Shown here: positions 24,294-46,511 of the stretch, in pieces
How the letters are laid out: every line of letters starts with the position of its first letter
How positions within the stretch are numbered: position 1 is the first letter of the stretch
Origin: a virus
Taxonomy: Duplodnaviria; Caudoviricetes
DNA: 56,081 nt
Virus record (IMG/VR): IMGVR_UViG_3300044630_001132
Coordinates: 1-56,081 of that record
Direction: 5' to 3' (one strand)
Position numbers and translations under genes: made by a program
Notes under the pieces: generated by a model
What the model was told of the DNA's origin: nothing
Seen by the model: only the letters and a program-made list of their open reading frames with translations
The model's database searches: none

Positions 24294-25145
24294 CTATCTT
24301 GTTAAGTATCTAATAACAACTATTCCTGAACCACCATTTCCACCTAAACCGTTTCCTTCAACATCGTTTAGGCCTCCTCCACCACCTGATCCAGTATTTG
24401 CAGAAGCAGATTGTCCTTGACCACCAGCAGTTGCACCTCCACCACCGCCTCCAAGTCCACCACCAATAGGAGAATTATGTCCATTTCCGCCACCGCCACC
24501 ACCTGCATAAGCAATAGGGGATCCAGTTCTAAGAGAATTATTTATTGAAGAACCACCAGTAGATCCTGCACCATATTGGCTACCAACTGCATCAGGCTCA
24601 CTACCTGCACCTCCACCACCACGTCCACCTCTTCCACCACCTCTTGAACCAGGTGCACCATGTCCTTGTCCAACTATTCCTGTGCCACTTGGTCCACCAC
24701 CAGAACCACCATTAGCAGCAGTAAGATCGCCTCTATTGCCACCACCTCCACCTGTAGCGGTTAGTCCATTAAATATAGAATTTCCACCATTTCCTGCTTG
24801 TAAACTTCCAGCACTTCCTTGTGTTCCACCATTACCAACAGTGATTGTGTAAGATGCTGGTAAGAGTTTAGTAAAAGAACCAACTAAGTAACCTCCTGCT
24901 CCACCACCACCGCCACCAGTTTCATTGTTTGATCCACCACCACCACCGCCGCCAGCAAGAATAAAGTATTCACAATCACCACCAGATGTAACAATAAATT
25001 GTGAAGTTCCTGTAAATGTATGAACTGTATAATCTATATTATTTAATGTGTAATAAGTTATTTCGCCACCAGTGGCCATAAATCTCATTCTTTGTTGTTT
25101 TCTTTGTAGCCCTAGATTACCTCTAATGCTATTTATAAAAGGCAT
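24294..25145 (-). CDS. Glycine-rich adhesin-like protein 1
   Basis: ATGG...YTVHTFT...AGGGGGG...GGSGIVVIRY architecture shared with seven other ORFs here. Confidence 0.8.
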   Translation of the reverse strand: MPFINSIRGNLGLQRKQQRMRFMATGGEITYYTLNNIDYTVHTFTGTSQFIVTSGGDCEYFILAGGGGGGGSNNETGGGGGGAGGYLVGSFTKLLPASYTITVGNGGTQGSAGSLQAGNGGNSIFNGLTATGGGGGNRGDLTAANGGSGGGPSGTGIVGQGHGAPGSRGGGRGGRGGGGAGSEPDAVGSQYGAGSTGGSSINNSLRTGSPIAYAGGGGGGNGHNSPIGGGLGGGGGGATAGGQGQSASANTGSGGGGGLNDVEGNGLGGNGGSGIVVIRYLTR

Positions 25146-25154
25146 TTAAACTCC

Positions 25155-25712
25155 TTAAAAATTAAGATTTGAACTGCCTAAAACAATCCAAGCACTTGAT
25201 TTTCTTATAAAGGTAAAGTTATAAAAATCTATTTTTCCAGCACTACTTGTTGGTGATGGGTTTGTTCCAGTAGCCCACCTAATTGTTTGGTTTGCACCGT
25301 TAACACTTATTGAGTTTGGAAAATATCCAGTAGCACCTTGAACAACTGCTATAGATATTCCTGTTGATTTATCTTCTGTAGTTGGAAGATTAGTTAAAAT
25401 TACACCAAAGTTTGCTGATGGTGAAGAAACGTAATAGTTATTTGCTGTTGCAAAATCAACACTAACTGATCCAGACACTATTGACAATGTTGGAATTGAT
25501 TCAATTATTTCATTTACAGAAAAAAGACCATTAACTGTAACGTCCCCACTAAATGTTGAGTTTCCAGTAAAAGAAGAACTCCCAGAAACTGCTAAAGATG
25601 AAGCAGTTGTATGTTCATGAGGTGCAGGTTCACCAATTTAAGGAACCCAAGTATCTGTTGCAGAGTCATAAACTCTTGCTAATTTACCTACGCTATCATC
25701 TATAGTTGACAT
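25155..25712 (-). pseudogene. Fibre adapter (type 1) gene interrupted by one in-frame TAA
   Basis: AGGAG RBS and ATG 25712: MSTIDDSVGKLARVYDSATDTWVP*IGEPAPHEH..., continuing in frame into ORF 25155..25487. Stop at 25638-25640. C-terminal domain paralogous to 30785..31717 and 37314..37880. Confidence 0.7.
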
Positions 25713-25728
25713 TGTTTCTCCTTATTAA

Positions 25729-26049
25729 TTATACCACTGGGGTTATTTCAACCCATTCGGTATTCATCTCTTCCCAAACATAATATTTTCCTGGCTCATT
25801 TGGATATGCAATAGGTGCAACATATTCCCATTTATCTTCATCTAATATCCAAGAAGGGTATGGCTTAGGTGTTAAAAATTTTTCTAATTCTGTATTATAT
25901 GGATATCCTATAGCGGCAAAATTATTATGACTATATTCAACATATGAATATTCTGGATTTTGTGATTTAATAATTTCTATAAAATCATAATCACATACTA
26001 AAGTATCTTCAACAATATTTTCTGAATTAATTTTTGCCCAATTTGCCAT
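25729..26049 (-). CDS. Small acidic fibre-associated (chaperone-like) protein
   Basis: MANWAKIN...AAIGYPY...PKPYPSWILDE..W..PIAYP...Y.W; paralog of 32949..33317. Confidence 0.7.
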   Translation of the reverse strand: MANWAKINSENIVEDTLVCDYDFIEIIKSQNPEYSYVEYSHNNFAAIGYPYNTELEKFLTPKPYPSWILDEDKWEYVAPIAYPNEPGKYYVWEEMNTEWVEITPVV

Positions 26050-26780
26050 TATAGTACGTACCTTATAATTACTATTCCTGAAGAACCAGATCCACCTGGT
26101 GTATTTCTATTTTGATGATTTACTCTACCGCCGCCACCGCCACCTGATCCGTGACCAGATGCACTTCCTCCAGTACCATCACCGTTAATACCATTACCAC
26201 CGCCACCGACACCACCAGTTCCAGCACTGTGACCACAATCACCTTCATCTCTTCCTCCAGCACCGCCACCACCACCGTAATGAGTTCCTAAATAAAGTCT
26301 TCCAGGTCCACCATTTCTACTAGAAAAGGCTCCACCTGCTCCACCTCCACCAGGGCTGTTTGTAAAATTATCTGGAGACCCAGTTGTAGTTATTCCTCCA
26401 CCACCTGCAGAAATTGATAATCCAGTTCCTACAACACTAGATGTTCCACCTCCACTTTGAGTTCCACCTAAATTTCCTACTGCAACAGTGTATGAAGCAC
26501 CAGAAGAAACTGTAGCATTTGGAGTAAACTGAACACCTCCAGCACCTCCACCAGCACCACACTGACCATGTCCACCTCCAGCACCTCCACCGATAGCAAA
26601 TATTTCAACTACTCCACCAGTTATTACGTTAAAAGTAGATGTACTAGTAAAAGTATGAACTCTGTATCCACCAGAATCTGAAGTACTGCCACCAGTTGCA
26701 ACAACTTTAGCATACTTATTAACTCTGTTAGTTTTTGAATTATCACTAACTAATGTATTTCTAACTGATGTTACTGCCAT
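26049..26780 (-). CDS. Glycine-rich adhesin-like protein 2
   Basis: ATGG, YRVHTFT, poly-Gly runs, GIVIIRY end. Confidence 0.8.
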   Translation of the reverse strand: MAVTSVRNTLVSDNSKTNRVNKYAKVVATGGSTSDSGGYRVHTFTSTSTFNVITGGVVEIFAIGGGAGGGHGQCGAGGGAGGVQFTPNATVSSGASYTVAVGNLGGTQSGGGTSSVVGTGLSISAGGGGITTTGSPDNFTNSPGGGGAGGAFSSRNGGPGRLYLGTHYGGGGGAGGRDEGDCGHSAGTGGVGGGGNGINGDGTGGSASGHGSGGGGGGRVNHQNRNTPGGSGSSGIVIIRYVL

Positions 26781-27109: not shown

Positions 27110-27754
27110 TTATGCCCCCATCATTAAAAATATGTCTTCCATGCCACTGCCGCCTTCAATTGCTATCCAGGCTGTACCGTTCCACACTAGTTGTTGATTT
27201 AACGCAGTGATATATACTATTGTACCAACAGTTGGAGATGGAATGTTGATATCTCTTGCTACTGTGCTTGCAAAAGCATTTATTCCTTTTTTAGCAATAA
27301 CGTTTCCAGAAATTGTTACATCTCCAGATACGCTTGCTGATAATGATCTAATTTCAGAATTTACAGTCAATGTGTCATAGGCTGTTGTTGGTGCAGAAAA
27401 AATGTGAGTTCCTGTCCAGGTGTAGTTTCTTCCTGTATCTACCTTTCCAGCAACTGCAAACCAAGTGTCAGTTCCCGCATCATACATGTATGCTGGCCTA
27501 CCTGTATCGTCTATGGTTGCATAAATTGCACTCCCAGATGGGGACACTGCTGTAGATGGAACGTTTGTTGCTGTTTTACTATATGTAAAAGTACTTGTTG
27601 TTGGAGTTCCTGTAACAGTATAGGATCCATTAAATGTTGAGTCTACACCACTAATTGTGATATATGTTCCATTGGTTAAACTATGGCTTGCTGACGTTGT
27701 AAGTGTTGCCACATTATCTGTAAGTTGTTTATTTGTAACTAATCTTAAAGGCAT
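27110..27754 (-). CDS. Fibre/anchor protein
   Basis: Thr-rich beta domain, RPAYMY..W motif, C-terminal DIFLMMGA. Confidence 0.7.
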   Translation of the reverse strand: MPLRLVTNKQLTDNVATLTTSASHSLTNGTYITISGVDSTFNGSYTVTGTPTTSTFTYSKTATNVPSTAVSPSGSAIYATIDDTGRPAYMYDAGTDTWFAVAGKVDTGRNYTWTGTHIFSAPTTAYDTLTVNSEIRSLSASVSGDVTISGNVIAKKGINAFASTVARDINIPSPTVGTIVYITALNQQLVWNGTAWIAIEGGSGMEDIFLMMGA

Positions 27755-27818: not shown

Positions 27819-27834
27819 TAATTTAGTTAAATAT

Positions 27835-29735: not shown

Positions 29736-29987
29736 TTATTCTTCAATAATTTCAATATCTTGAATAAATTCTGGGTCTAAAAATTGTCCATATCCAGATA
29801 AAAATAGTTCTTCAGCCTTTGATTCATCAATATCATATTCTTTTTCACATACATACATATCATTAGATTCATCTACTTCAAAATCAAATGGACTTATAAA
29901 GGTTGAATAATGAGTTTCACTATCTACTTTTTTTACAACCCCGATAGTTTCTTCAATAGGGTTTAGTGGTTTAAATTTATAGTTCAT
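29736..29987 (-). CDS. Small acidic hypothetical protein
   Basis: 83 aa, RBS AAGGA, directly after a Gly-rich gene. Confidence 0.65.
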   Translation of the reverse strand: MNYKFKPLNPIEETIGVVKKVDSETHYSTFISPFDFEVDESNDMYVCEKEYDIDESKAEELFLSGYGQFLDPEFIQDIEIIEE

Positions 29988-29996: not shown

Positions 29997-30776
29997 TTAT
30001 GGTTTAACATATCTTATCATGACAATACCAGATCTTCCAGCATTTCCACCGCCACCACCTGCACCAGTGTTATTTCCCAAATATGTTGTTCCTCCACCAT
30101 CTCTTGATCCACCTGCACCACCTCTAGCATATTCTGTTGAAGTTCCATTAAAGTTTATAGTAACACTTGCTCCACCTGGTTGAGAAGAAAGATCTCCACC
30201 GCCTTGAAGTCCAGCACCTCCAGCACCTCCACCAGATCCAGCACCCCAACTTAAATGTTGTTGAGCACCTCCGTTATTTCCTTGTCCAGCAGTACCACTT
30301 CCAAAACCAGTTCCTCTTCCTGCACCTCCACCAGATCCACCAGTAGTTCCAGCATATACGCTATCACCTCTACCACCATGACCTCCACCAATAGCACTTA
30401 CTAAAGAACCAATAGATGATACGCCGCCAGAACTTGGAACACTTGTTCCACCATTTCCAACTGTAATAGCATGAGTAATAGGAGTTACGTTAGAAATTGT
30501 TCCTTGTAGTAAACCTCCTGCACCACCACCTCCACCAGATCCACCAAAGTTAGTGTTTGGTCCACCACCTGATCCACCACCAGCGATAACTAAATAGTTA
30601 ATATCAGATTTACCACTTAAAACTTGAAATGTTCCACTGCTTGTAAATGTATGAACTATATAAGTTGTTCCACTAATAGTGGCTTCTGTCGTTACTCCGC
30701 CAGTTGCGGTAAATGGGCTTTGCTGCTGTCTTCCTGTTACGCCTCTAGCCCCACTGAATGATGATAATATTGGCAT
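29997..30776 (-). CDS. Glycine-rich adhesin-like protein 3
   Basis: ATGG, YIVHTFTSSGTF, poly-Gly, GIVMIRY. Confidence 0.8.
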   Translation of the reverse strand: MPILSSFSGARGVTGRQQQSPFTATGGVTTEATISGTTYIVHTFTSSGTFQVLSGKSDINYLVIAGGGSGGGPNTNFGGSGGGGGAGGLLQGTISNVTPITHAITVGNGGTSVPSSGGVSSIGSLVSAIGGGHGGRGDSVYAGTTGGSGGGAGRGTGFGSGTAGQGNNGGAQQHLSWGAGSGGGAGGAGLQGGGDLSSQPGGASVTINFNGTSTEYARGGAGGSRDGGGTTYLGNNTGAGGGGGNAGRSGIVMIRYVKP

Positions 30777-30784: not shown

Positions 30785-31717
30785 TTAAATATTTAGATTT
30801 GTACTACCAAGTACTATCCAAGAATCGGATAATCTTAGAAGTGAGAATATGAAGATATCAATCTTATTTAGAGAATTTGTTGGGGTTGGAGCAGTTCCAC
30901 CAACCCATCTTATTGTTTGGTTTGTACCATTAACACTTATTGCATTAGGAATGTAACCACTTGATGCTTGCGTTACCATAAAAGACATTGTTGTTACTCT
31001 ATTGTTTGTTGTTGGAATATTTGTAAGTATTACACCAAAGTTTGCAATTGTTCCTGATGATGTATGAAAAATTGCACCTTCATTATAATTTCCAGTTACT
31101 GATCCAGATACAAACGATATACTATTTACAACTTCTGTAACTTCTGCAATATTTGTTATTCCAGTTACTGTTAAGTTTGTTAAGTTTGCTGTTGTTGCAG
31201 ATAATGTTGTTGAGTTTAATGTTGGAGCAACAACCGTTCCTGTAAAAGTAGGATTTGCAGTAGGTGCATATGCTGAAATATTTACTGGTGAAATATCATA
31301 ATTTTTATCAACCCAAACTTGACCATGTGTTGGTGTGGTAGGCTCATCATTTACATAAGAAACCACTCCAGCGGCTGTAACGCTTGGAACTGTTCCATCT
31401 TGATCTACCCAAATATACCCTTCAGGAAGAACTGTAGTGGTATTGTCTGCTCTAACCAGTAAATGAGGAATCGCTGTTTGAACAACACCTCCACCAGATG
31501 GTGTACTTTCTTGTAATTCTAATCTTAAATTAAAGTCTGATAAATGTGAATGAATACTGTCTGCTGCTGGCGATTCTGCACCTGTATAGTTATCTAATCC
31601 GTAATGATAAAGTTTAAAAGCCTCTACGATATTTGCTTGATCGTTTAATGAGGGGATCTTTGTATCAAATTCTGTAGCACCGTATCCAGATGCATCACTT
31701 AAAAATTGACCTGCCAT
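30785..31717 (-). CDS. Fibre protein with type-1 adapter C-terminal domain
   Basis: TKIPSL...ANIVEAFKLYHYG N-terminus, G.IWVD knots, C-terminal TNIPT...TIRW...KIDIF...WIVLG. Confidence 0.75.
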   Translation of the reverse strand: MAGQFLSDASGYGATEFDTKIPSLNDQANIVEAFKLYHYGLDNYTGAESPAADSIHSHLSDFNLRLELQESTPSGGGVVQTAIPHLLVRADNTTTVLPEGYIWVDQDGTVPSVTAAGVVSYVNDEPTTPTHGQVWVDKNYDISPVNISAYAPTANPTFTGTVVAPTLNSTTLSATTANLTNLTVTGITNIAEVTEVVNSISFVSGSVTGNYNEGAIFHTSSGTIANFGVILTNIPTTNNRVTTMSFMVTQASSGYIPNAISVNGTNQTIRWVGGTAPTPTNSLNKIDIFIFSLLRLSDSWIVLGSTNLNI

Positions 31718-32691: not shown

Positions 32692-32949
32692 TCAAGCAAG
32701 GTCGCCCCATGTTACAGTTTGTAGATTAAATACTGACTTAAATTCTATCCAAGTTCCATTTATTACTACATATAAACCTATAACTTCATTTAATTCCCCG
32801 CTTAATTTGAAATAAACTGTTCCTTCTTTTGCTGCATGTGTTGGATCTGCTGCACCAAATTCGTAGTTTGGTTGAACTCCAGCAATTGGAACCCATTCGG
32901 TTCCATTCCAAACTTGTGCTGGTCTTGAATTAGCAGATATGTTAGGCAT
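32692..32949 (-). CDS. Small anchor-motif protein
   Basis: Likely start 32949 (TAATG coupling): MPNISANSRPAQVWNGTEWVPI. Confidence 0.65.
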   Translation of the reverse strand: MPNISANSRPAQVWNGTEWVPIAGVQPNYEFGAADPTHAAKEGTVYFKLSGELNEVIGLYVVINGTWIEFKSVFNLQTVTWGDLA

Positions 32950-33317
32950 TATTCTGGGACTTCTTCTTCCCATTCTCCCTTATTATCATTCCAAGTATAA
33001 AATCCTTCTGATTCATATGGGTATGGAATTGGAGGTTCCCACTGGTATGTTGTTGTATTTAAAATAAATTTTTCAAAAGGTTTTGGTGGAATAAATACAT
33101 CTATAGAACTATCGTAAGTATATCCTATGCCAGCATAATTTTTTCTTATATTTGAATTGTAAGATGTTTGTTTCCATGTACCACCAAAAATATTGTGACA
33201 AAAGGTAGCACCAACTGATTCTGATTCTATACCATTACCATCTAAACAATCTTTGTTGTCTACAACGATAACTCTTGTAACTATGTTGTTTTGATCTATC
33301 TCTGCAAAATGTGCCAT
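32949..33317 (-). CDS. Small fibre-associated (chaperone-like) protein
   Basis: MAHFAEID...WKQTSYN..IRKNYAGIGYTYD...PPKPF; RBS AAGGAGG. Confidence 0.75.
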   Translation of the reverse strand: MAHFAEIDQNNIVTRVIVVDNKDCLDGNGIESESVGATFCHNIFGGTWKQTSYNSNIRKNYAGIGYTYDSSIDVFIPPKPFEKFILNTTTYQWEPPIPYPYESEGFYTWNDNKGEWEEEVPE

Positions 33318-33874: not shown

Positions 33875-34753
33875 TTATTCTGTCCTATAGCGAATTATTA
33901 CAATTCCACTTCCACCAGCAGATCCAGCACCAGTTCCAGCACCATTACATCCACCAAGTCCACCACCGCCTCCACCAGTATGTTGTTGTCCTGGCGATCC
34001 TCCACCCCTACAAAACTCTCCACCATTTCCGCCACCACCTAATCCTCCTGCTGAGGTTCCGCCGCCGTTGTGAGCAGCACCACCACCGCCGCCACCAGAA
34101 TAATGAGTTGAAGTACCATTTATTGAACTTGATAATCCTGCTCCACCAGCACCACCTGGTTGTCCACTTGCACCATTTGCATTTGTACCAACTGCACCAG
34201 CACCGCCACCGCCACCGCCATTATGATGACCTCCACCACCATGCCCCCCTGCATGTCCTTGACCAGCGATTCCAGCACCACCAACACTTGTTTGGTTGTG
34301 TGCAGAGCCTCCTCCTGATCCTCCACTTCCACCTAATTGATTTGTAGTATGTGATCCACCAAATCCTCCACCTGTTGCAACAACTGTACTAAAAAATGAA
34401 TCTACTCCTTTAACTCCAGTACTTGCATTTGCTGAAGGGCCTCCACTACCAACTTGTACTGAGTATGTTCCTACTCCAACTGGTGTTTGTCCAGTTAAAA
34501 ATCCTCCCGCACCTCCACCACCTCCTGCAGGTGTACTACCACTAATACCTCCACCACTTCCTCCTCCAGCAACTACTAAATAGTCAACACTTCCTGCTCC
34601 GCTAATTACAGTAAATGTTCCACTGCTTGTATATGTGTGAACACGATACGTAATTCCACCACTAGTATGATTTATAGTAGTGTTTCCTCCATTTGCTACA
34701 AGGAATCCACCACTAGGGTTTTTTCCAACTGAGTTTAATGAACTTATTGGCAT
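33875..34753 (-). CDS. Glycine-rich adhesin-like protein 4
   Basis: YRVHTYTSSGTF, YLVVAGGG, poly-Gly, GIVIIRY. Confidence 0.8.
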   Translation of the reverse strand: MPISSLNSVGKNPSGGFLVANGGNTTINHTSGGITYRVHTYTSSGTFTVISGAGSVDYLVVAGGGSGGGISGSTPAGGGGGAGGFLTGQTPVGVGTYSVQVGSGGPSANASTGVKGVDSFFSTVVATGGGFGGSHTTNQLGGSGGSGGGSAHNQTSVGGAGIAGQGHAGGHGGGGHHNGGGGGGAGAVGTNANGASGQPGGAGGAGLSSSINGTSTHYSGGGGGGAAHNGGGTSAGGLGGGGNGGEFCRGGGSPGQQHTGGGGGGLGGCNGAGTGAGSAGGSGIVIIRYRTE

Positions 34754-36597: not shown

Positions 36598-37305
36598 TTA
36601 TAAGCCATAAAAAGATTTTGCTGCATTAAAATTTCCACTTATTTCTGAGTCAGACAAAGCACGATTATACACTCTAACTACAGATATTCTACATTGAGAA
36701 AATTCTCCAGGCCATCCATTATGTATATTACAAATCTGTGCTGTAAAGTTATTAGTAAATCCACTTTTTGATCCTCTTGATAATCCATCTTTAAATGCAT
36801 ATGCAATAGAAGATTCTCTTTTAAATACAATATGATTCCATGTGTTTAACATCAATGACCACCCAGGGGTTGAGTTATATGTCTCAAAGGTTGGGGTATA
36901 CAGATACACCTGCCCGCCCCCAATACTTCCTACGTCTGCTTTTAATGCCATGGTACTTTGTTGTGGAAAAGCAATCATATGGGTATACTTTGTAAAATCT
37001 TGTGGGTATATCCAGCACTCTAAAGTAAAATCTCCTGTGCCAAAAGCAAACTTGGGGTTAGATGCTATAGTTGCAGAGTCATCGGTTCCGTCAAATTGAA
37101 TATATGGCCTAGTAAAGGTTGGTCCATTTACTAATGTTGCGTTACTTGGGCTAGCACTAAGATCTGTCCAAATAGTTCCAGAAGATAGATAAGAGTTAGA
37201 GTTGCTTGCATCTAAATTTAAAATTAAACCATTTGTAGAAACACTGTTTCTATTTGTTTTTCCATATATACCACGATTTCCACCAAAAGTTGTTAGTCCT
37301 GGCAT
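36598..37305 (-). CDS. LamG/ConA-like lectin domain protein
   Basis: Start 37305 after AGGAG; GLILNLDA, FDGTDD, DFTLECWIYP, WNHIV and RVYNRALS motifs. Confidence 0.85.
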   Translation of the reverse strand: MPGLTTFGGNRGIYGKTNRNSVSTNGLILNLDASNSNSYLSSGTIWTDLSASPSNATLVNGPTFTRPYIQFDGTDDSATIASNPKFAFGTGDFTLECWIYPQDFTKYTHMIAFPQQSTMALKADVGSIGGGQVYLYTPTFETYNSTPGWSLMLNTWNHIVFKRESSIAYAFKDGLSRGSKSGFTNNFTAQICNIHNGWPGEFSQCRISVVRVYNRALSDSEISGNFNAAKSFYGL

Positions 37306-37313: not shown

Positions 37314-37880
37314 CTATATGTTTGTACTGGCATTTCCGATAACTATCCAAGAGTTAGATCTTCTAATCATTGAAAAGTTATAAATATCAAGTTTTCCAGT
37401 TATGCTTGTTGGAGTTGGTGCTGCACCATTTAACCATTTAATAGGCTGAGTGATACCATTAATTTGAAGTAATGAAACTCCATATCCTATATTACCTTGA
37501 GGAATAATTAAAGACACAGTGTGTGATTTTAAATTTGTAATAGGAACATTGTCAACATTTAATGCAAAGTTAGCAGTAGCAGCATTTGATAAATAAAATA
37601 AAGCAGATGTAGTAAAATTAGCATAACATAAATTACTTGCAGTTACTATTACATCTTGAACTCTTTCTGATATTTCAGATATGTCTAATCTACCTGTAAT
37701 GTCTACGTCACCTATAAATGATGACGATGCTGTAGTTGCTGGGGGGCTAGAAATATTACTTCTACCAGATATATTATTAGTTCCAATAGTATTATTAACA
37801 ATTGATGAGTTATCTGCTGATGATAATACAGGAATGTTTAATTCATAATCATATTGATGATTGAGTTTATTTAATCCCAT
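37314..37880 (-). CDS. Fibre adapter (type 1)
   Basis: NVPIT...IKWLNGAAPTPT...KLDIYNF...WIVIG; paralog of the 25155 and 30785 C-terminal domains. Confidence 0.75.
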   Translation of the reverse strand: MGLNKLNHQYDYELNIPVLSSADNSSIVNNTIGTNNISGRSNISSPPATTASSSFIGDVDITGRLDISEISERVQDVIVTASNLCYANFTTSALFYLSNAATANFALNVDNVPITNLKSHTVSLIIPQGNIGYGVSLLQINGITQPIKWLNGAAPTPTSITGKLDIYNFSMIRRSNSWIVIGNASTNI

Positions 37881-37889: not shown

Positions 37890-40800
37890 TTATGCCTGGG
37901 CTTCGGTCCAAGAAAGTCTTCCTTGTACATCCAGTGATGATGCAGAGGTATTTGTTACTACAATTGTAAGAACATCTGGTCCATCAGGATAGATATTTGT
38001 GTTAGCGTTAGGACCGCCACCGCCAAGAATTGAATTACCTAAATCACGAACCCTATCAAGTTCTAGTGTTGATGTTCCTTGGGTAAAGAAACCTCCAGTT
38101 ACCTCTCCACCAGAGACTGAAGTTGATCCTCCTGAATAGTTAGCAATTTGTGCAAGACTTGAGTTTGCAACACCAGTTGCGTTGTTAACTGCGTTTGTCC
38201 AAGCAGTTGCTGTACTTGGAGTTCCGTTAAGAACTGCTGTTACAAGCATGTTTGGAGTTAAAGTTCTTGTTGTAATACCTAGTGATACTAAAACTAACTG
38301 CATTCTGTTTACAAGTTCACGTGTTCCAAAGTTTGCAGCAATACCGTTATCCACAGAAGGTGCTACTCGAATTGAAAACAGTGCTCTTGATGCACCAGCA
38401 GCAATGGTTGTAAATGTTGTTTGTCCATATGTAAACACAAGTGACTTATCGTCATCGTACCTACCGTCCATAATTACAGAAGTGCCCCAATGTGATATTT
38501 GTGAAGAATATGATGGGAATGCTAACTCTACCATTACTGGAGAAGTTGCAGAAATTGTAAATGCTTGTGGACTTGCCATACCCATTGGTGCAAATAAGAC
38601 ACCAGTTGGATTTGTTGTTGTTGCTGCTTGAGTAAATGTTAAAGTTGTTCCATTAATTGCAGAAACATATGTTCCGTCTGGGAAGTTAGCACTAATAACT
38701 CTTTGTCCAATTTGAATTCCAGCAGCACTAGAAACTGTACCAACATTCGTTCCATTTGTTATTGATACCGTAACTCCACCTACTGAGCCACCTTGTGCTC
38801 TAGTTAAGCCAGTAAATGATGTTGCTGTTTTTCCTACGTAGTTAACATATTCATACTTAGAACCATCTCTAACACAAAGTGTTCCACTTGGTGGGAAGTT
38901 ACTTGTATCTACTACGTTTAATGCTGTGTCTGTGTTTGAAGCACTAGTTGTTAAAGAAGTGTAGATTGGATCTGTTGATGATTCATAACGTGCTGGTAAG
39001 TTACCTGAACGCATGTATGCTTCATTGTTAATATTATTGTTTGGCATCTTGTGTACATAAGTTACGTTTCCATCACGACCACGCATACCCCAACGTACAT
39101 ATCCTGCACCATACCAAGAATAATCAACATAAAACATTTGCATTTTTGCTAAATCTAGTAACATTCCTGATGGGCCAGTCCCATCCATCTTATCAATATT
39201 CCATTGTGATTGAGGAATCTTAAAGTCTACTGTTTTAGAAACAATTGCAAATTGTGTTGTAGAACCTCTATATGATGGAGTAATTGTCATGCTTGTATCA
39301 CTTTCAATACTTTGAATCTTATAGGAAACTCCACGAATTACTATAAAACTACCAACTTCTAGTTGTCTTGCAAAATATGTTGGGAATGAAGAGTCTGTTT
39401 GTGTAACTGTATTTGAATTATTTGTAACAGTTACTCTTCCAGAAATTTGAAATGTAGAGTTTCTACGAACTGCGTATAGTGTTTGACCATTGAACTCAAA
39501 AAATAGTCCATTTTGATCATCAAAAATACCTAATTTATTTGAACATCCATACCATGAAATTACTGCTGCATAATAAGGACCTTGTCCTACTGATACTGTA
39601 GGAACTGTTGGAACTGTGTATTGAAATCTGTTGTATCCAACTATGGAAGTAATAGTAAATTCTCCATTATAAACTGGGTCTAAACATCCAGCAATTCTTA
39701 CTACGGCACCTGGTTGTAAATTGTGTTGATCTTTAGTTTGAACAGTTACTGTTTGTCCTACTGAGTTAATAGAGTCTAGTTGTAAGTTTGGTTTTAAAAT
39801 TGTTCCTGAAGACATTTGCATGCCTTTTCCTGATTGATAACGGAAATAACGTCTTGTTTGACGAATTGCTTGTTCATTATTTGAGTTTGCATTTGTAGAA
39901 AATACAACTCCTCCGTCAAATGGTCTATGTAAAAATTGAGATTTTGGAACCATATAAACTTCTGCCGCTGCACCAGACAATGCTCCAGTTGGTGCTGCTA
40001 ATGTGTAATATGTAAACTGTGTTGGACTTGTAATTGTACAAACTGGAAATGTTCCGTTTGGTGCATTTGTTGTAGCAGTAGATCCAATTATATTAACTTC
40101 GTTTCCAATTGCTAATCCGTGTGGCACTGTAGTTGTTACCGATACTGCCTGTCCTGCGTAAGACATTGTAGGTGCTCCACCAATTCGTGCACCAGTATAA
40201 ATACTTCCTGAATAAATTACTGTTTTATTAGTATCCAAAATAGATGTTACGGTACCTGAGTTAAGTGCTCTACCTGTATAAGTAAATGTACTTGTTCCTC
40301 CACCGCTTTCAACTGTGAAATTACCATTGGCAATTGATAGATATGTATCATAAACTGAAATTGATGTTCCGTTTGCTGGTGCTGTACCACTAGAAAGTGT
40401 TACTGTAACAATTCTTGAGTTATTTAACATTGTAATTGCAGAAACGTTTGGAATTGGAGATGGTGATGCGTAGGCAAATGGTCTGTGATTAATTAATCCA
40501 AGATTTTCCCATTTAGAAACTTGTGGACCGTATTCAAAGTCAGTATCGATAAGTGCTTGTGGGGTTGTAACTCTAAGTTTATTTGTAGAATCTAAATATG
40601 TTTCTGCTGGTTCAAATTTTTCGTTATATTCATCAACAAGGATAGATATTTTATCTGTTGATGACATTGCTGCAGTATTATAATTTAAAACAACACTGGT
40701 TAATTCATCCATATTGGAATTAACTGATGCTGAAACTGTACCTCTTAAACTTGGGTCTGAGAAATTGTAGATTACGATATTTTTTGTTACGTTGGTTATT

Positions 40801-40898
40801 AAAATTAGTCTTTCTGCTGGTATGTAGTGGTTAAATACAATTGTTCTTGTTGCTGGATTAAATGTATATTGTGTTTCAAAGATTACTTTTCTTGCCAT
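37890..40898 (-). CDS. Large tail fibre/baseplate-associated protein
   Basis: 1002 aa, Thr/Ser/Gly beta-rich; YTFNP...LILITNV N-terminus, three VTV..H.L..G..V.I.G-type domains, RQTRRYFRYQSGKG and WYGAG motifs. Confidence 0.75.
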   Translation of the reverse strand: MARKVIFETQYTFNPATRTIVFNHYIPAERLILITNVTKNIVIYNFSDPSLRGTVSASVNSNMDELTSVVLNYNTAAMSSTDKISILVDEYNEKFEPAETYLDSTNKLRVTTPQALIDTDFEYGPQVSKWENLGLINHRPFAYASPSPIPNVSAITMLNNSRIVTVTLSSGTAPANGTSISVYDTYLSIANGNFTVESGGGTSTFTYTGRALNSGTVTSILDTNKTVIYSGSIYTGARIGGAPTMSYAGQAVSVTTTVPHGLAIGNEVNIIGSTATTNAPNGTFPVCTITSPTQFTYYTLAAPTGALSGAAAEVYMVPKSQFLHRPFDGGVVFSTNANSNNEQAIRQTRRYFRYQSGKGMQMSSGTILKPNLQLDSINSVGQTVTVQTKDQHNLQPGAVVRIAGCLDPVYNGEFTITSIVGYNRFQYTVPTVPTVSVGQGPYYAAVISWYGCSNKLGIFDDQNGLFFEFNGQTLYAVRRNSTFQISGRVTVTNNSNTVTQTDSSFPTYFARQLEVGSFIVIRGVSYKIQSIESDTSMTITPSYRGSTTQFAIVSKTVDFKIPQSQWNIDKMDGTGPSGMLLDLAKMQMFYVDYSWYGAGYVRWGMRGRDGNVTYVHKMPNNNINNEAYMRSGNLPARYESSTDPIYTSLTTSASNTDTALNVVDTSNFPPSGTLCVRDGSKYEYVNYVGKTATSFTGLTRAQGGSVGGVTVSITNGTNVGTVSSAAGIQIGQRVISANFPDGTYVSAINGTTLTFTQAATTTNPTGVLFAPMGMASPQAFTISATSPVMVELAFPSYSSQISHWGTSVIMDGRYDDDKSLVFTYGQTTFTTIAAGASRALFSIRVAPSVDNGIAANFGTRELVNRMQLVLVSLGITTRTLTPNMLVTAVLNGTPSTATAWTNAVNNATGVANSSLAQIANYSGGSTSVSGGEVTGGFFTQGTSTLELDRVRDLGNSILGGGGPNANTNIYPDGPDVLTIVVTNTSASSLDVQGRLSWTEAQA

Positions 40899-40902: not shown

Positions 40903-41802
40903 TTAGCCTCCCAGCATTATATCTGTTGCTCTGAACGGATATATCCTGTTTCTTGTAGTTGTTGCTGAACCCATCATTATCCTAGCATCGAACGTTGATC
41001 CAGCGGGTGGTCTTTCTGAAAATGCAATGTACCCTTCTGAGTCTATCATAAATCCATCTCTAGGAAGCATTGACTGCCAGACGTATTCAGGAAAGTCTAC
41101 TGTTTGTATTATACCATTAATCGTAAGTAATAGTCTATAGGGATTTGTAAGATTTACTATTTCTCCTCTATATGTTGGATAGAATCTATTCTCTATACCG
41201 TCAAATTTCCACTTTAAATCATCTAATGGAATTATGTCATCGTTTACAAATAAAGATATTTTATTATTAGTATCATCATAATTTACTGATACCCCCGCAG
41301 TTGAGGCACTTGAAAATAGTGAGGCAATTAAGTCTTGAATAAACTCTTGCCCAGAAGATCCGTAGTTAATGTATTGTGCAGAAGCACTTTCTTTACTTAG
41401 ATATTCTGCTGAAGCATTAGTCTTATTTAAATAGTTTGAAGACGCTGTTGTATTAGACAAATAGTTTGATGTAACATTATTTGATAATGTTACTAAGGAA
41501 GAATTTATAGCACTTACAGAAGCACTATTAGAGTTAGTAAAGTTAAATAAATCAGTTGTTGTTGCAAACCCTGCAGATGCTGACATTAACTCTTCTAAGT
41601 CAGTGTGAGTATGGGTACTGCCTGTTACAGTGTCATCTGAGTCTACCCATAGAAGTCCAATCTTAGGGTCACTTGGAGATGCTGATTGATAAGCAACATA
41701 CGTATAGTTTCCAATATTAGTTATATCATTTACAGGAATCCATTGTGATCCAGACCACACATATGCTGGTCTAGTTGTTAAGGAAAATGGGGCTGATGCC
41801 AT
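40903..41802 (-). CDS. Fibre/anchor protein
   Basis: RPAYVWSGSQW N-terminus, three YL..ASA. repeats, C-terminal PFRATDIMLGG. Confidence 0.7.
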   Translation of the reverse strand: MASAPFSLTTRPAYVWSGSQWIPVNDITNIGNYTYVAYQSASPSDPKIGLLWVDSDDTVTGSTHTHTDLEELMSASAGFATTTDLFNFTNSNSASVSAINSSLVTLSNNVTSNYLSNTTASSNYLNKTNASAEYLSKESASAQYINYGSSGQEFIQDLIASLFSSASTAGVSVNYDDTNNKISLFVNDDIIPLDDLKWKFDGIENRFYPTYRGEIVNLTNPYRLLLTINGIIQTVDFPEYVWQSMLPRDGFMIDSEGYIAFSERPPAGSTFDARIMMGSATTTRNRIYPFRATDIMLGG

Positions 41803-42188
41803 TATGCTTCATCTCCAACTATAAAGTCTTCGTCTTCTGGCCTTACTTCTCCAGGAAATCGAGGGTATTCAACATATGCTGGAAACTCTGTATTAGAAGG
41901 AAGATCTCTTAATGCTTGTCTATAAATAGCCCACTCAGATTTTAATTCCTCTGTAATAGGAGCATCTGATATTTGTGTCCAATCACAATTTAACAATCTT
42001 CTATTTCTAGACTCTCTTAGTTCAACCCATCTAACAATATTATTTTTTTCAAAATCTATCATTTCATTTACTTTAGTATCTAATTCCTCTTCAGTATATT
42101 CAATATACTCACCGAGTTCATTAGCACTCTTATGACTAATTAAACTAGTTCTAAACATTTCTCTTAATTCTATTTCTTTTTCACTCAT
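41802..42188 (-). CDS. Tail fibre assembly chaperone
   Basis: LRESRNRRLLNCDWTQISDAP...W..YRQALRDLP motif. Confidence 0.85.
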   Translation of the reverse strand: MSEKEIELREMFRTSLISHKSANELGEYIEYTEEELDTKVNEMIDFEKNNIVRWVELRESRNRRLLNCDWTQISDAPITEELKSEWAIYRQALRDLPSNTEFPAYVEYPRFPGEVRPEDEDFIVGDEA

Positions 42189-42190: not shown

Positions 42191-43192
42191 TTAAAATGAA
42201 GTAGGATTAGTAAAACCAAATCTTACTATAACTACCCCATTACCTCCCCTTCCTGCTGAACCACTTGGACTTGCATGCGATCCACCACCACCGCCACCTA
42301 AACCATCTGTACCGTTTCCTGGAATTACGTTAGGACTATGACTTGCACCATTTCCTCCACCACCAAGTCCACCTGTAGAACTTGCAGTATGTCCATGTCC
42401 ACCACCTCCACCTGAGTAATGTGTTGCTGTACCAGTAATGCTGTTTAATAATCCTGGTCCACCTGGTCCGCCATTGTTACCAGTAACACTAGTTCCAACT
42501 CCACCTGCACCACCACCGCCACCACCACCCCAACTGCTACCATGCCAACCATGACCACCAAAGTTTCCTTGACCTTGTTGAGCCGCACCACCATGGCCTC
42601 TTTGGTTTCCAATAACATCTCCGCCACCAGAACTATTTCCCATTGCTGCTCCACCACCTGAACCACCTGGTGTACCATTGCCATAAGCACATTGATAACT
42701 ACCTCCACCTCCACCACCTATAGCCTGCAAATGCATAAATAATGAATTACCACCTGTACCTCCTGGAGCAGCACTACTATAAGGACTAGAAGATCCACCT
42801 GCACCAACCGTTATTGGTGTACTAGTTGTATCTACTAAAATATTAGATTCGTAAATATAACCGCCTCCGCCACCACCTCCACCATGATGATTTCCTCCAC
42901 CACCACCGCCACCAATCACTAAGACATCTGCATATGCACCAATGAATGGAGATAAATCTACAACTTGTGAACCTGTATTATTAAATGACTTAAAAGCAAA
43001 CCAACTTGCACCTGATGCGTAAGTTGTCCAACCATAACTTTGAATCCATTGAACAAATGTTGGACTTGCACTAAATATTTGTGTTTTAGGCACACCTTGA
43101 TTAATTTTTGTTGTAACAAATCTATATAAGGCTGGATTTGCTCCAGCAGGCAAAACACTTGCTAATTCAGAAGTAGAAAAATTATCTTGCAT
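42191..43192 (-). CDS. Glycine-rich adhesin-like protein 5
   Basis: N-terminal domain shared with the two upstream genes; DVLVIGGGG...GNGVVIVRF. Confidence 0.8.
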   Translation of the reverse strand: MQDNFSTSELASVLPAGANPALYRFVTTKINQGVPKTQIFSASPTFVQWIQSYGWTTYASGASWFAFKSFNNTGSQVVDLSPFIGAYADVLVIGGGGGGGNHHGGGGGGGGYIYESNILVDTTSTPITVGAGGSSSPYSSAAPGGTGGNSLFMHLQAIGGGGGGSYQCAYGNGTPGGSGGGAAMGNSSGGGDVIGNQRGHGGAAQQGQGNFGGHGWHGSSWGGGGGGGAGGVGTSVTGNNGGPGGPGLLNSITGTATHYSGGGGGHGHTASSTGGLGGGGNGASHSPNVIPGNGTDGLGGGGGGSHASPSGSAGRGGNGVVIVRFGFTNPTSF

Positions 43193-44217
43193 TATCCAAT
43201 ACCCCCTGGAGAATAAACAATTTGAGTTCTAATAACAACTATACCAGTTGCACCGTTACCGCCTCTAATACCGTTACTATGACCTCCACCGCCACCGCCA
43301 CCACCACTATTTGGAGCAGCATTTGCGTGATTACTAACCCAAGATGACTGTTGTAGTCCTAATCCTCCACCACCAAGTCCACCAGAACCACTATAGTAAG
43401 AATGATTCCAACCACCCCCACCACCTGCAAACCAACGTGTATATCCTAAAATTGTATTTGATAAACCAGTGCCACCTGGTCCACCATTTTCATTACCAGT
43501 TCTTTGTACGCCTACAGATCCAGCACCACCTCCGCCACCACCAGGGTATGCTGGGCTAGAATGCCACCCACCACCACCGTGATTTCCTTGACCAGTTACT
43601 GCATAACCAGGAGTTCCTCTTTGACTATTTGATCTCCAAGTAAAATTATCACCGTTACCACCAGAATGTCCAATTGCTCCTCCGCCACCAGAACCTCCAG
43701 GAGCACCAGAACCAACGTTACTATGAGTTCCTCCACCTCCACCACCTATTGCCACTATGTCGTCAATAACTGAGTTAGCACCATTAGCACCCATTACGTT
43801 GGAATTACTTGATATAGCACCAATACCACCTTCACCAACTGTAATAGAAATTGATGATTTATTAAAAACTTTAGTTGTTAAACGATAACCACCTGCTCCA
43901 CCACCGCCACCATGTTGTCCACCACCACCGCCACCACCTGCAACACATAAAACATCAAAAGTGTTTTTTTCAAATGGTGTTATTGTTGTTGTAGTAGTTC
44001 CAGCAGTATTAAATTCTTTACATGCATAAAATGCATTTGATTGAAAATATATTTCCCATCCAAGTGATTCTAAATAATTTAAATAACTTATACCATTATA
44101 TGTTTTTGTTCTAGTAAAATCATTTTGCATTGCATAAGAGAAATATCTATATACCCCGCTAGTATTTCCATTTTTTAATAATGCAGTAACGTCATCAGAA
44201 GTATAAATCTCTGGCAA
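43192..44217 (-). CDS. Glycine-rich adhesin-like protein 6 (TTG start)
   Basis: DVLCVAGGG...GIVVIR; coupled to both neighbours. Confidence 0.8.
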   Translation of the reverse strand: MPEIYTSDDVTALLKNGNTSGVYRYFSYAMQNDFTRTKTYNGISYLNYLESLGWEIYFQSNAFYACKEFNTAGTTTTTITPFEKNTFDVLCVAGGGGGGGQHGGGGGAGGYRLTTKVFNKSSISITVGEGGIGAISSNSNVMGANGANSVIDDIVAIGGGGGGTHSNVGSGAPGGSGGGGAIGHSGGNGDNFTWRSNSQRGTPGYAVTGQGNHGGGGWHSSPAYPGGGGGGAGSVGVQRTGNENGGPGGTGLSNTILGYTRWFAGGGGGWNHSYYSGSGGLGGGGLGLQQSSWVSNHANAAPNSGGGGGGGGHSNGIRGGNGATGIVVIRTQIVYSPGGIG

Positions 44218-45246
44218 TTAAATCGACCCCGCTGGGAAAGATAGTGGGAATCTTACTATTACTACTCCAGATCCGCCATTTCCACCAATGAAGGATGTTG
44301 TCCAACTGCCACCGCCACCGCCGCCAGTATTTGCTATGCCATCAGTTGCTTTGTACATGTTTGTTCCACCAAAACCTCCACCACCATTTCCACCTACTCC
44401 ACCAGGGTTTGATTCACCACTTCCACCACCGCCACCACCAGCGTAAAATTTAGTTACTCCAGTTATTGTGTTTGATAATCCTGAACCACCAGCACCACCT
44501 CTATTACCAGTTCCAGTTCCGCCATCAGCACCAGCAGCACTGGCACCACCACCGCCACCACCTACGTGATTTGATCCATAGTATCCACGACCACCATTAT
44601 TGCCTTGCCCAGAAGTTCCTGTACCACCAATACTAAAATTACCATTACTTGGACCAAGGGATCCTCCACCACCAGATCCTCCAGCAGCACCATTTCTTGT
44701 TGGGTCTCCACTCCAAGCACCACCTGCACCTCCACCTATTGATGTTATTGAACTAAATACAGAGTTTTGACCATTGCTACCTCTAACATCTGTTGCTTGA
44801 ACACTTGTACCACCATTACCCACTGTAACCGTTACGTTACCATTTACTGCAAAATTTGTTTCTAATCTATATCCTCCTGCACCTCCACCACCACCGTGAT
44901 GTCCAGCACCTGAACCTCCACCTGCAACAACAAGTACGTCAGCATTTGTTCCGTTAAATGGACCAGCATTCCATGTTGTTGTACCACTTATAAATTCTTT
45001 GTAAGCATAATAATTTCCATTTGTATCTCTATATGTTGTATAACCATTTGAAGAAATATAATCTAAATAAGCAGTACCAGATAAAATATTTGCTTTTGAT
45101 TTACCCTGGCTAATTGCCCATGCAACATATGAAAATGTTGCGGGTGATGAATTAATTGGAATAATATTTGCTAATTCAGAATATGAAAATAAAGTTTGAC
45201 CTACCGAACTACTTCCTGTAGTTCCTCTTATACTATTAACAGCCAT
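44218..45246 (-). CDS. Glycine-rich adhesin-like protein 7
   Basis: MAVNSIRG N-terminus; DVLVVAGGG...GSGVVIVRF. Confidence 0.8.
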   Translation of the reverse strand: MAVNSIRGTTGSSSVGQTLFSYSELANIIPINSSPATFSYVAWAISQGKSKANILSGTAYLDYISSNGYTTYRDTNGNYYAYKEFISGTTTWNAGPFNGTNADVLVVAGGGSGAGHHGGGGGAGGYRLETNFAVNGNVTVTVGNGGTSVQATDVRGSNGQNSVFSSITSIGGGAGGAWSGDPTRNGAAGGSGGGGSLGPSNGNFSIGGTGTSGQGNNGGRGYYGSNHVGGGGGGASAAGADGGTGTGNRGGAGGSGLSNTITGVTKFYAGGGGGGSGESNPGGVGGNGGGGFGGTNMYKATDGIANTGGGGGGSWTTSFIGGNGGSGVVIVRFPLSFPAGSI

Positions 45247-45815
45247 TAGACTATTTCTCCCCCAAATAAAGATATAGCGATATTTGGAGAACCAAACGCT
45301 ACTATTTTATCTCCAGATGTAATTGTTAATCCTAAAGTTAATGAAATTTGATCTCTTGCAAGTATTCCTGGGCCCCATGCTATAAAATGTTTTTTACTTA
45401 AAGTTTCTCCAGTTTTTACTGCTGCTAAAAAGAAAGTTCCATCTATATCTGAGCAATTTGTTACTGTTATTGTAGATATTAAAGTTTGAGTACTTGGTGA
45501 TGCTGGGCATGTATAAACTATTGTCTCTGGAACATATGAAACACTTGCTCCTACTGTTGCTGCAGTTACAACATTGCTTGCTGATACAGGGTATGTAAAA
45601 CTTGTATTGTTTGGTACTGTGGAAACATTTTGAGTTCCATTAAATACTGCATCTATTCCAGTTACGGTTACGGAATTACCTTCTAAAATATTGTGGGCTG
45701 AGGCAGTTGTTAAGGTTACAAGGTTACTGGTAAGGTTTCTAAATGAAATGGATCTTACTTCTGGTGTTAAAAGTGTTTGACCTAAAATCTTTAAGGTTTT
45801 TACTTGTTGTGCCAT
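45246..45815 (-). CDS. Fibre adapter (type 2) with inserted beta domain
   Basis: KILGQ...[insert]...IVYTCP...STITVTN...LFGGEIV. Confidence 0.75.
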   Translation of the reverse strand: MAQQVKTLKILGQTLLTPEVRSISFRNLTSNLVTLTTASAHNILEGNSVTVTGIDAVFNGTQNVSTVPNNTSFTYPVSASNVVTAATVGASVSYVPETIVYTCPASPSTQTLISTITVTNCSDIDGTFFLAAVKTGETLSKKHFIAWGPGILARDQISLTLGLTITSGDKIVAFGSPNIAISLFGGEIV

Positions 45816-46511
45816 TTATACTCCCATAAGCAGTAGCGTATCAAATATATCTCCGCCGCCGCCAGCACCTGACATTTCAATCCAGGTACTTCCATTATAC
45901 ACTTTCAATATCGGTGCTTCTGCTTCTGTTGTGTCGATCCAAAGTTGTCCAGTTGCAATTTGATATGCAGGGGATGAAGAGTTGTAGGTAATATTTGGTT
46001 CATAGGTAGCAGATGCTGCTGTAACTGTTAGGTATGTTGCTGAAGCATTGGCGGTAGAAAGAACATTCATTATATTTTGATTAGTAAACTGAGTAGAAGA
46101 TGAGTTATATACCAATAATTCATTATTTAAAGGGGTAGCAATGGTAGTATCTGTAAGGCTGTTTAAATTTGTAATGGTAGAAGATATTGTGATAGTATTT
46201 GTAGCACTAGCAGCATTTACGGTTATGCTTGTTCCAGCCTGTATGTTAAAACTATCAAAGTCAGAGTCTGACAGTATTGTTTCGGTAGTAGGTGTTGTTG
46301 TTATAAACCCAAATCCATTAGGGTTTACTATTCCAGTACCTAAATAGTCATTACTATCTACCCAAACTGTTCCAACATCTAAATTATTTACATCTGGCTG
46401 AGTTGGTTGATATAAAACTGCATCGTTTCTTGTTTGAGTAATAGGAACCCAATTAGTTCCATTCCAAACATATGCTGGTCTAGTAGTATCTAGTATTTGT
46501 GCTGATGACAT
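45816..46511 (-). CDS. Fibre/anchor protein
   Basis: RPAYVWNGTNWVP N-terminus; C-terminal DIFDTLLLMGV. Confidence 0.7.
   Translation of the reverse strand: MSSAQILDTTRPAYVWNGTNWVPITQTRNDAVLYQPTQPDVNNLDVGTVWVDSNDYLGTGIVNPNGFGFITTTPTTETILSDSDFDSFNIQAGTSITVNAASATNTITISSTITNLNSLTDTTIATPLNNELLVYNSSSTQFTNQNIMNVLSTANASATYLTVTAASATYEPNITYNSSSPAYQIATGQLWIDTTEAEAPILKVYNGSTWIEMSGAGGGGDIFDTLLLMGV

Follow-up and report, generated by a model that had tools for sequence, protein, structure and literature searches.

The long tail fibre of the T-even phages is assembled from gp34, gp35, gp36 and gp37 joined end to end, and in T2 and S16 the adhesin gp38 caps gp37. Here we describe a tail-fibre gene array in IMG/VR virus record IMGVR_UViG_3300044630_001132, in which shafts and receptor-binding heads are encoded as separate polypeptides that probably meet at two conserved junctions. 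The window analysed is the whole record (56,081 bases, linear, with a completeness estimate of 46%). [quoted passage not shown] The concept of a docking peptide paired with a branching domain is already established in those other phages, with recent proof by engineering.

As described for the K1-5/K1E/SP6, KP32/KP34-type and G7C systems, the docking peptide can be as short as 7-11 residues and is carried by unrelated bodies (PMC6872550), and the array is alike in this respect. The likeness extends to the pairing of the peptide with a conserved domain of a neighbouring gene product, and to several specificities per phage with easy swapping. The parts differ, however. The presumed sockets here are a free-standing jelly roll of 109 amino acids (aa) and a C-terminal beta domain of ~125 aa that belongs to no known family; one of the junctions adds a third element, the hydrophobic C-terminal tail of the shaft; and the heads are polyglycine or lectin-type binders rather than depolymerase tailspikes, the hosts being aquatic bacteria. 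No array protein has a Pfam or PHROG match to a T4gp10-like domain, and that domain is absent among the fold matches listed for the jelly roll. What differs here is the junction parts, which have no detectable relation to T4 gp10, together with the C-terminal tail element, the kinds of head and the ecological spread. With the T-even fibre the array would share its construction from several gene products with non-covalent joints, genes in assembly order and chaperones, and a glycine-rich adhesin that sits on the tip of a trimeric shaft by way of its N-terminal part; the junction elements differ, and the searches gave no match to gp35-gp38, either in sequence or among the folds listed. The literature searched, which did not cover the primary Bxb1 paper or supplements, holds no description of either junction.

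We consider it probable that the region is the super-cluster of receptor-binding genes of a large, long-tailed lake-water phage, and that two conserved junctions in it join separate shaft and head polypeptides non-covalently. Its translationally coupled cassettes would encode shafts and receptor-binding heads, along with small adapter domains and chaperones for assembly. At junction 1 the shaft would end in the ~125-aa beta domain (type 1), with ..W.V.G..NLN[FIY] at its very end, and the head would start with the peptide MP[FIL]..S.RG..G. At junction 2 the shaft would end in a flexible Gly linker followed by an 8-10-residue hydrophobic C-terminal tail, ..[FL][LM][LM][MI]G[AG], the socket would be the 109-aa jelly roll (type 2, or B), and the head would start with the short peptide M-[AS]-[IVL]-[STR]... 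A trimeric shaft would present either the type-1 knob or hydrophobic tails engaging the jelly-roll socket, and the first ~12-20 residues of the head, disordered alone, would engage the same knob or socket. Translational coupling would keep the partners proportionate, and acidic genes downstream would assist head folding. We infer the contacts among tail, B and head peptide, their stoichiometry and the presence of all of these proteins in this virion. Since the junction parts stay constant and the head bodies are exchanged, such a phage could collect or swap specificities with shaft and tail untouched.

An earlier note on this DNA had read the region as a plug-and-socket system in which short terminal peptides specify the docking partner. 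The genes that it listed are all present on the minus strand where it had placed them. As it had observed, shafts A1, A4 and A3 end in Gly linkers and the tails LLLMGV, IFLMMGA and HPFFGVY, and each is followed at 0 or -1 nucleotides (nt) by a type-2 gene. The stop of the type-2 gene overlaps the start of a Gly-rich gene, and the products of these genes begin MAVNSIR, MAVTSVR and MPISSL, respectively. The three type-1 domains are likewise followed by genes starting MPGLTTFGGNRG, MPILSSFSGARG and MPFINSIRGNLG, whose bodies are LamG or Gly_rich_2. Within the type-2 family, B3 is 43% identical to B2 (2e-26) and 35% identical to B1 (4e-14); within the type-1 family, C3 is 50% identical to C2 (4e-39) and 32% identical to C1 (3e-29). 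The possibility that B and type 1 form one family was rejected (hhalign probability 0.7%). The plug-and-socket reading as a whole stands in part: the association of adapter with peptide, the unrelated bodies, selection at the protein level and gene fusions speak for it, while the kinship of the two peptide classes, exceptions in the window and a yield of one independent pair on supported branches limit it.

To survey junction 2 we scanned IMG/VR with a B alignment, which returned 313 relatives, and kept the best 80 loci, containing 82 B copies. A copy was scorable if an upstream open reading frame (ORF) with a minimum of 60 aa ended beside B; this holds for 72 copies, and in 68 of them the upstream ORF ends in the tail pattern. 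One of the four misses is a near miss (L067, ..FMLGGM); at L066 and L073 another frame had been picked, and the junction DNA inspected by eye encodes ..LLLIGA and ..FMLLGL; L077 has no tail. Seven of the 10 copies that have no upstream ORF lie at a contig edge, and the other three have ..LMTMGA in the junction DNA. B is separated from its cargo gene by -4 to +3 nt in 79/80 cases, and the gene downstream starts M/V-[ASTG]-[IVLT] in 78/82; the stricter pattern is matched by 25/33 unique decapeptides. The shafts of these loci are otherwise very diverse (collagen-like, Ala/Ser-rich or built of W-x-G-x-x-W repeats). The cargos vary as well, being Gly-rich in only 18/80 copies and otherwise consisting of LamG repeats, DUF285, immunoglobulin (Ig) domains or nothing known. 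The cargo at L060 (positions 4330-8157 of that locus) has 1276 aa and five LamG_3 stretches; its 30-bit Pfam match to the family that represents the lectin-like N-terminal receptor-binding domain in clostridial neurotoxins probably reflects just another concanavalin-like fold.

The AlphaFold2 (AF2) model of B3 is an eight-strand beta-sandwich with jelly-roll topology and a mean predicted local distance difference test (pLDDT) score of 91.5. Its matches in the PDB are generic jelly rolls, namely the KHP40 cement protein (Z 9.7), HDT/nucleoplasmin cores, the HFTV1 turret protein, Ena spore-appendage subunits and TNF/C1q (~Z 7). A proposed resemblance of B to the N-terminal domain of the T7 fibre was discarded, with no Pfam match and no place for that domain among the listed fold matches. 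In BFVD the B fold is common in viral proteins of ~105-120 aa, and some of these have a virion structural annotation (S-TIM5, MaMV-DC and S-SCSM1). Longer B homologues bear directly on the order of the parts. In 19 of 99, B stands at the N-terminus ahead of a body of Gly-rich, LamG, RCC1 or Ig type, sometimes with the usual head start immediately after B, and P0004 joins shaft, tail and B in one chain. These covalently joined forms place the tail directly before B and the head start directly after it. Most of the other longer homologues resemble B1 in that an insertion interrupts B after strand 1; inserts at this loop reach ~600 aa, one of them with a carbohydrate-binding-module-type Pfam domain (protein collection). 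The insert of B1 itself shares 37% identity with the A4 N-terminus, and this small domain of ~65 aa recurs within the 1002-aa protein of the array.

These observations also bear on an alternative in which gene order and terminal motifs serve assembly, so that the motifs are tags for chaperones or trimerisation, B is a non-virion factor, and heads and shafts form separate fibres. Such a factor has a precedent in the cyanophage Pam3, whose chaperone gp25 is reported to bind gp24 in a 3:3 complex and not to be found in virions (PMC9608196); tight translational coupling would suit an assembly factor equally well, and none of the solved tail parts is specifically related to B in structure. However, an N-terminal B in 19 longer head proteins and binding-type inserts in most of the others would be odd for a factor that is released, the small proteins of the same fold noted above carry virion structural annotations, and the cassettes already possess separate chaperone-like genes. 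We regard this alternative as unlikely.

Junction 1 was surveyed in the same way. The IMG/VR scan found 51 type-1 loci, and in all 43 strong matches the ~125-aa domain ends no more than seven residues from the stop codon; the ORFs that carry it span 127 aa (truncated by the edge of the locus) to 1255 aa. In the protein collection the domain is terminal in 120/120 of the longer homologues listed, out of 319, and two of these 120 have a second, internal copy. A gene starting MP- lies downstream in 38/43, mostly after 3-14 nt; three of the remaining five have no downstream gene in the locus, and two differ. Gly occupies positions 9 and 12 in 18/27 distinct cargo peptides, and 13/24 distinct cargos are Gly-rich, the rest including Ig, fn3 and unknown bodies. 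The domain has no relative in Pfam, among PDB sequences or in the B profile. Pfam searches of 25 type-1 domains gave just scattered sub-threshold matches, and an ESM Atlas search with C1 gave unnamed viral clusters plus one cluster with PF26209 on 21% of its members, which is a lead only. PDB sequence searches with B3, C2, the type-1 profile, the head profile and a Gly-rich protein gave nothing, or antibody Gly-linker artefacts.

Comparison of the two surveys reveals that adapter type and cargo N-terminus are associated, a co-occurrence check that the earlier note had proposed. Unique decapeptides starting MP[FILVAR] follow type-1 domains in 23/24 cases and type-2 adapters in 0/33 (Fisher 4.5e-15, kinship not accounted for). 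The stricter patterns are rare in the opposite locus set: M[AS][IVL][STR] occurs in 3/269 ORFs of the type-1 loci, and MP[FIL]x5GxxG in 1/582 ORFs of the type-2 loci. The start peptides sit on unrelated cargo bodies, including Gly_rich_2, LamG, He_PIG, fn3, DUF285 and bodies of no family. On a poorly resolved tree of 34 head bodies, adapter type requires 7 changes, compared with 11.5 in shuffles; the better argument for independence is the occurrence of the same peptide classes on non-homologous bodies. The peptide 'code' is statistical. Its two classes are themselves related, and the code is least clear-cut in the window; at L077, MPNKSL follows B.

The heads themselves resemble known fibre and tail-tip proteins, and most are predicted to combine a TNF-like fold with polyglycine, like the fibre protein gp24 of Pam3. 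PF21722 (Gly_rich_2) matches eight array proteins at 36.8-89.9 bits (cut-off 24.3). In the AF2 model of G5, residues 1-20 are disordered (pLDDT ~46-58), and DSSP assigns no helix. The remainder superimposes on residues 76-277 of Pam3 gp24 (7ypx_A) with Z 13.7, a root-mean-square deviation of 3.0, 171 aligned residues and 28% identity, and the model matches the Bxb1 tail-tip chains (PDB 9D93) with Z 12.6-12.9 (for Z 12.6, 173 residues at 28% identity). The next tier, the glycine-rich domains of ALK/LTK, lies far below at Z ~7 (6.8 for ALK). S16 gp38 is not among the listed fold matches of G5; for Pam3 gp24 itself, a superposition on S16 gp38 of 52 residues only is reported (PMC9608196). That source proposes that the tips of the glycine-rich loops of gp24 bind the receptor, and that these domains are the receptor-binding end of a trimeric fibre requiring a Tfa-like chaperone (PMC9608196). 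Pam3 gp24 (PDB 7YPX, 7YFW; chaperone gp25) and the heads described here thus share a fold, with a chaperone gene downstream in both. In contrast to gp24, which is self-contained and has its own N-terminal helical baseplate-docking domain, the heads of the array have a disordered peptide of ~20 residues and separate shaft and adapter genes, and only one cassette has a Tfa-family chaperone. The polyglycine ('brush') proteins of mycobacteriophage Bxb1 have a similar head fold and are separate small proteins at a siphophage tail tip.

These two precedents raise a second alternative, namely that heads dock alone on a common baseplate or tail-tip site through their N-terminal peptides and that the upstream gene is a mere syntenic neighbour. 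Pam3 gp24 is described as docking on the baseplate through its own N-terminal domain (PMC9608196), the Bxb1 polyglycine domains are described as associated with the central fibre (PMC13252515), and G2 and G3 do without both junctions. On the other side, the two peptide classes track two upstream modules over many loci, the N-terminal alpha-helical docking bundle of gp24 is not present in the G5 model, and the B-head fusions put B beside the head N-terminus. On this evidence, docking of heads by themselves is decidedly unlikely. G1, G2 and G3 (42191-45246) are tandem paralogues that share an extra N-terminal domain of ~60 aa and are followed by one Tfa chaperone; as only G1 has a docking-type peptide, the three may build a heterotrimeric head. 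Mycobacteriophage Mysterious is described as having heterotrimeric fibres in which the subunits are three tandem paralogues (PMC13252515).

Nucleotide signals could also shape gene ends. In many loci GGAG or GGAGG lies within the last shaft codons, a few bases before the start of B, in the codons for a final M-G-A or I-G-G, so the final G-A or G-G of the tail could be a by-product; small second residues are common in proteins, and the loose pattern M[ASTG][IVLT] occurs in 27% of ORFs in the pooled loci. Yet the tail is retained where the Shine-Dalgarno site sits in a separate spacer (L060, L063, L067). Pairwise identity at codon positions 1/2/3 is 0.66/0.88/0.39 for the tail, 0.56/0.62/0.36 for the MP peptide and 0.52/0.57/0.34 for the type-2 cargo start, compared with ~0.33 at all three positions over the next 12 codons; positions 1 and 2 are conserved and position 3 is near background. 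Selection on the end-peptides acts at the protein level, not the RNA level. The spacer cases, the codon-position identities and background rates of ~1% or fewer ORFs for the stricter patterns in the other locus set largely refute the idea that the terminal motifs are by-products of Shine-Dalgarno sites in last codons and of start codon preference, or chance, and leave it very improbable.

Several observations weigh against two docking junctions. First, the contacts are inferred, and no interface was demonstrated by any method used here; a complex prediction with three copies of B3 and three of the last 50 residues of A4, run with alignments, scored 0.00 in two runs and carries no weight either way. 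Computed folds cover B3 and G5, the type-1 domain being known from its sequence alone. Second, the window holds exceptions. G2, G3 and the 916-aa fibre have heads with neither junction, G4 starts MPISSL after the type-2 adapter B2, and the MAVNSIRGTTG of G1, which follows B1, has an NSIRG..G core, typical of type-1 cargo, in common with MPFINSIRGNLG of G7. A2 has a tail-like C-terminus (DIMLGG), yet the 1002-aa protein follows it and no type-2 gene. A B-like domain at the N-terminus of that protein, an idea prompted by this tail, was rejected (hhalign probability 0.6%). Third, the association of adapter type with peptide class is uncorrected for ancestry, and the head tree is poorly resolved, with 2/31 inner branches well supported and one independent pair on supported branches. 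No fusion of type 1 to cargo occurs among the 120 listed of the 319 longer homologues. Finally, presence in the virion is taken from annotations of relatives, not from this phage, and in HMO-2011 a weakly B-like gp64 has an upstream protein with no tail and a small basic protein downstream, with no head.

Both junctions have counterparts in named phages. In phiPsal1 (L083, MG835450) an 86-aa mini-shaft ending in a Gly linker and ..LMLMGG precedes a B homologue (the two are gp020-gp021), which a note in the record links to an HTVC010P virion protein; an unannotated Gly-rich ORF comes next. From ~7340-7540 onward in that genome, the annotated gp022 looks to be in the wrong frame, the Gly-rich ORF right after the B homologue being the one left unannotated. 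In P-SSM2 the C-terminus of the fibre gp301 reads ..EFFVGQI, with gp302, a B homologue, next in line, and in Melnitz gp173 has a hydrophobic C-terminus, gp174 is B-like and gp175 is Gly-rich. For junction 1, S-RSM4 gp038 has a C-terminus that fits the type-1 profile (hhalign probability 95.8%, E 6.7e-9), and the next gene product, gp037, starts MPVSF and has LamG regions, which the LamG head of the window resembles. The S-RSM4 record describes gp037 and gp038 as similar to S-PM2 structural proteins, and the S-PM2 relative of gp038 as identified by mass spectrometry.

More tentatively, the jelly roll, plugged by the hydrophobic C-terminal tail, and the type-1 knob, plugged by the MPF peptide, may be general, portable connection standards by which sipho-, myo- and possibly podoviruses of freshwater and marine bacteria, T4-like cyanophages included, mount unrelated receptor-binding heads on their shafts, with ~ten heads on one virion here; we hold this broader view as possible, with less confidence than the two junctions themselves. 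The host range of uncultured aquatic phages is very hard to infer from sequence. If these are true docking standards, the junctions would mark shafts, adapters and exchangeable heads across hundreds of IMG/VR contigs, as well as in cultured phages of Prochlorococcus, Synechococcus, OM43 and marine actinobacteria, and would supply annotation rules for proteins of ~110 aa now labelled hypothetical or virion structural. They would also explain the accumulation of many heads in such phages and define head-swap points for laboratory phage-host pairs, for which the Klebsiella podophages are a precedent with different parts.

Table 1. Fibre, adapter, head and chaperone genes of the array, in order along the minus strand.
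Feature	Position	Strand	Evidence or remark
472-aa fibre	49336-50754	-	N-terminus resembles that of the 916-aa fibre
916-aa fibre protein, C-terminal Gly_rich_2 head fused	46529..49279	-	PF21722 36.8 bits, residues 738-908
A1, 231-aa shaft	45816..46511	-	N-proximal RPAYVWNGTNW; C-terminal Gly linker and hydrophobic tail ..LLLMGV
B1, type-2 jelly-roll adapter, 189 aa	45246..45815	-	type-2 profile 1.1e-18; ~75-aa small domain inserted after strand 1
G1, Gly_rich_2 head, start MAVNSIRG	44218..45246	-	PF21722 63.6 bits
G2, Gly_rich_2 head, G1 paralogue without the ~18-aa N-terminal peptide	43192..44217	-	PF21722 89.9 bits
G3, Gly_rich_2 head paralogue without N-terminal peptide	42191..43192	-	PF21722 67.5 bits
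128-aa tail-fibre assembly chaperone, isoelectric point (pI) 4.44	41802..42188	-	PF16778 74.2 bits, cut-off 26.6; phrog_4912
A2, 299-aa shaft	40903..41802	-	N-proximal RPAYVWSGSQW; HTH metal-site-like motif; end ..DIMLGG
1002-aa virion structural protein	37890..40898	-	phrog_5838, 1045 bits
C1, 188-aa short fibre, C-terminal type-1 domain	37314..37880	-	type-1 profile 3e-54
LamG head, start MPGLTTFGGNRG	36598..37305	-	PF13385 63.1 bits
A3, 494-aa shaft	35088..36572	-	C-terminus GGGGDSGLHPFFGVY (Gly linker and HPFFGVY)
B2, type-2 adapter, 111 aa from MPNIYK	34753..35088	-	type-2 profile 1.1e-45
G4, Gly_rich_2 head, start MPISSLNS	33875..34753	-	PF21722 70.8 bits
122-aa acidic protein, pI 4.41, putative chaperone by position	32949..33317	-	phrog_7759
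C2, 310-aa fibre, C-terminal type-1 domain	30785..31717	-	type-1 profile 6e-55
G5, Gly_rich_2 head, start MPILSSFSGARG	29997..30776	-	AF2 pLDDT 85.5; Pam3 gp24 Z 13.7, Bxb1 9d93_Qa Z 12.6
83-aa acidic protein, pI 4.05	29736..29987	-	no family match
A4, 214-aa shaft	27110..27754	-	C-terminus GGSGMEDIFLMMGA (Gly linker and IFLMMGA)
B3, type-2 adapter, 109 aa	26780..27109	-	AF2 model pLDDT 91.5
G6, Gly_rich_2 head, start MAVTSVRN	26049..26780	-	PF21722 38.7 bits
106-aa acidic protein, pI 4.12	25729..26049	-	phrog_7759
C3, type-1 short fibre, 185 codons, in-frame TAA at 25640-25638	25155..25712	-	Leu at this codon in the orthologue at L093
G7, Gly_rich_2 head, start MPFINSIRGNLG	24294..25145	-	PF21722 78.4 bits

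Two further claims of the earlier note held in part. It had assigned an N-proximal RPAY motif to six proteins. Five of these (at 45816, 40903, 35088, 32692 and 27110) have the motif in its W/Y-x-G-x-x-W form, but the sixth, at 25712, is no protein of its own: its 24 codons open the C3 gene (25712-25155), which has a TAA at codon 25. The position is Leu in the orthologue at L093, the codon is TTA by the base found in contigs of runs X2 and X3, and contigs of run X1 break exactly there; the site is therefore polymorphic, and this TAA is either a nonsense variant or an error of assembly. Nor is the motif specifically N-proximal, as it also stands directly before the C-terminal Gly linkers. A strict W/Y-x-G-x-x-W pattern has seven matches in the window, all in the array, compared with an average of 0.14 in 500 shuffles, and has a weak Pfam match to DUF7360; it is a general fibre repeat. 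The note had further proposed that most cassettes end in a small acidic chaperone-like gene. Four such genes (pI 4.05-4.44) do close four cassettes, but only the 128-aa protein is recognised as a chaperone (PF16778). The two phrog_7759 proteins (122 and 106 aa) and the 83-aa protein have no Pfam match at E up to 1, hhalign of the small acidic set against the 128-aa chaperone gave a probability of 0.35%, and an ESM Atlas search with the 122-aa protein gave no usable match. The chaperone role of these three proteins is putative, from position only, and the position is repeated in Melnitz, where both Gly-rich genes of the locus are followed by a phrog_7759-type acidic gene.

By Pfam and PHROGs, the minus strand from 50,754 to 24,294 is a nearly continuous row of fibre-type genes containing eight Gly_rich_2 heads and one LamG head. 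The 472-aa and 916-aa fibres place the start of the array ~4 kb upstream of the range that the earlier note had given. Bases 1-16.4 kb, also on the minus strand, encode a 2003-aa tape measure protein, major capsid protein, protease and portal, the capsid protein being closest to those of ~126-kb Streptomyces siphophages (~40% identity). The 1002-aa protein aligns over its full length with structural proteins of S-RSM4, S-PM2 and Syn1 at 43-45% identity; in S-RSM4 the gene preceding this homologue has no hydrophobic tail of the junction-2 kind. Contigs from several lake-water metagenome runs carry the window's sequence, and a nucleotide search with 20 kb of the window against the phage collection gave no match.

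The sole interruption of the fibre row is a carbamoyltransferase gene (PF16861/PF02543) on the opposite, plus strand at 28185-29735. A glycosyltransferase gene (23150-24241, minus strand) comes after the last gene of the array, and in P-SSM2 a Nol-like carbamoyltransferase lies directly after the fibre cluster; these neighbours may link the fibre genes to glycan modification. The segment 31737-32973 holds more cassette parts that lie outside the grammar of the earlier note, namely a mini-shaft of 85-93 aa, which probably begins with MPNISANS where the upstream gene stops, then a 116-aa phrog_1084 protein (paralogue at 51118-51462) and after it a 191-aa protein starting MAINSVLQ. Elsewhere in the window, an ORF of 1181 aa with no PHROG match lies at 16732-20277, between ribonucleotide reductase and the head genes, and a tryptophan-halogenase-like gene is found in 52230-53828 (phrog_2928, 469 bits).

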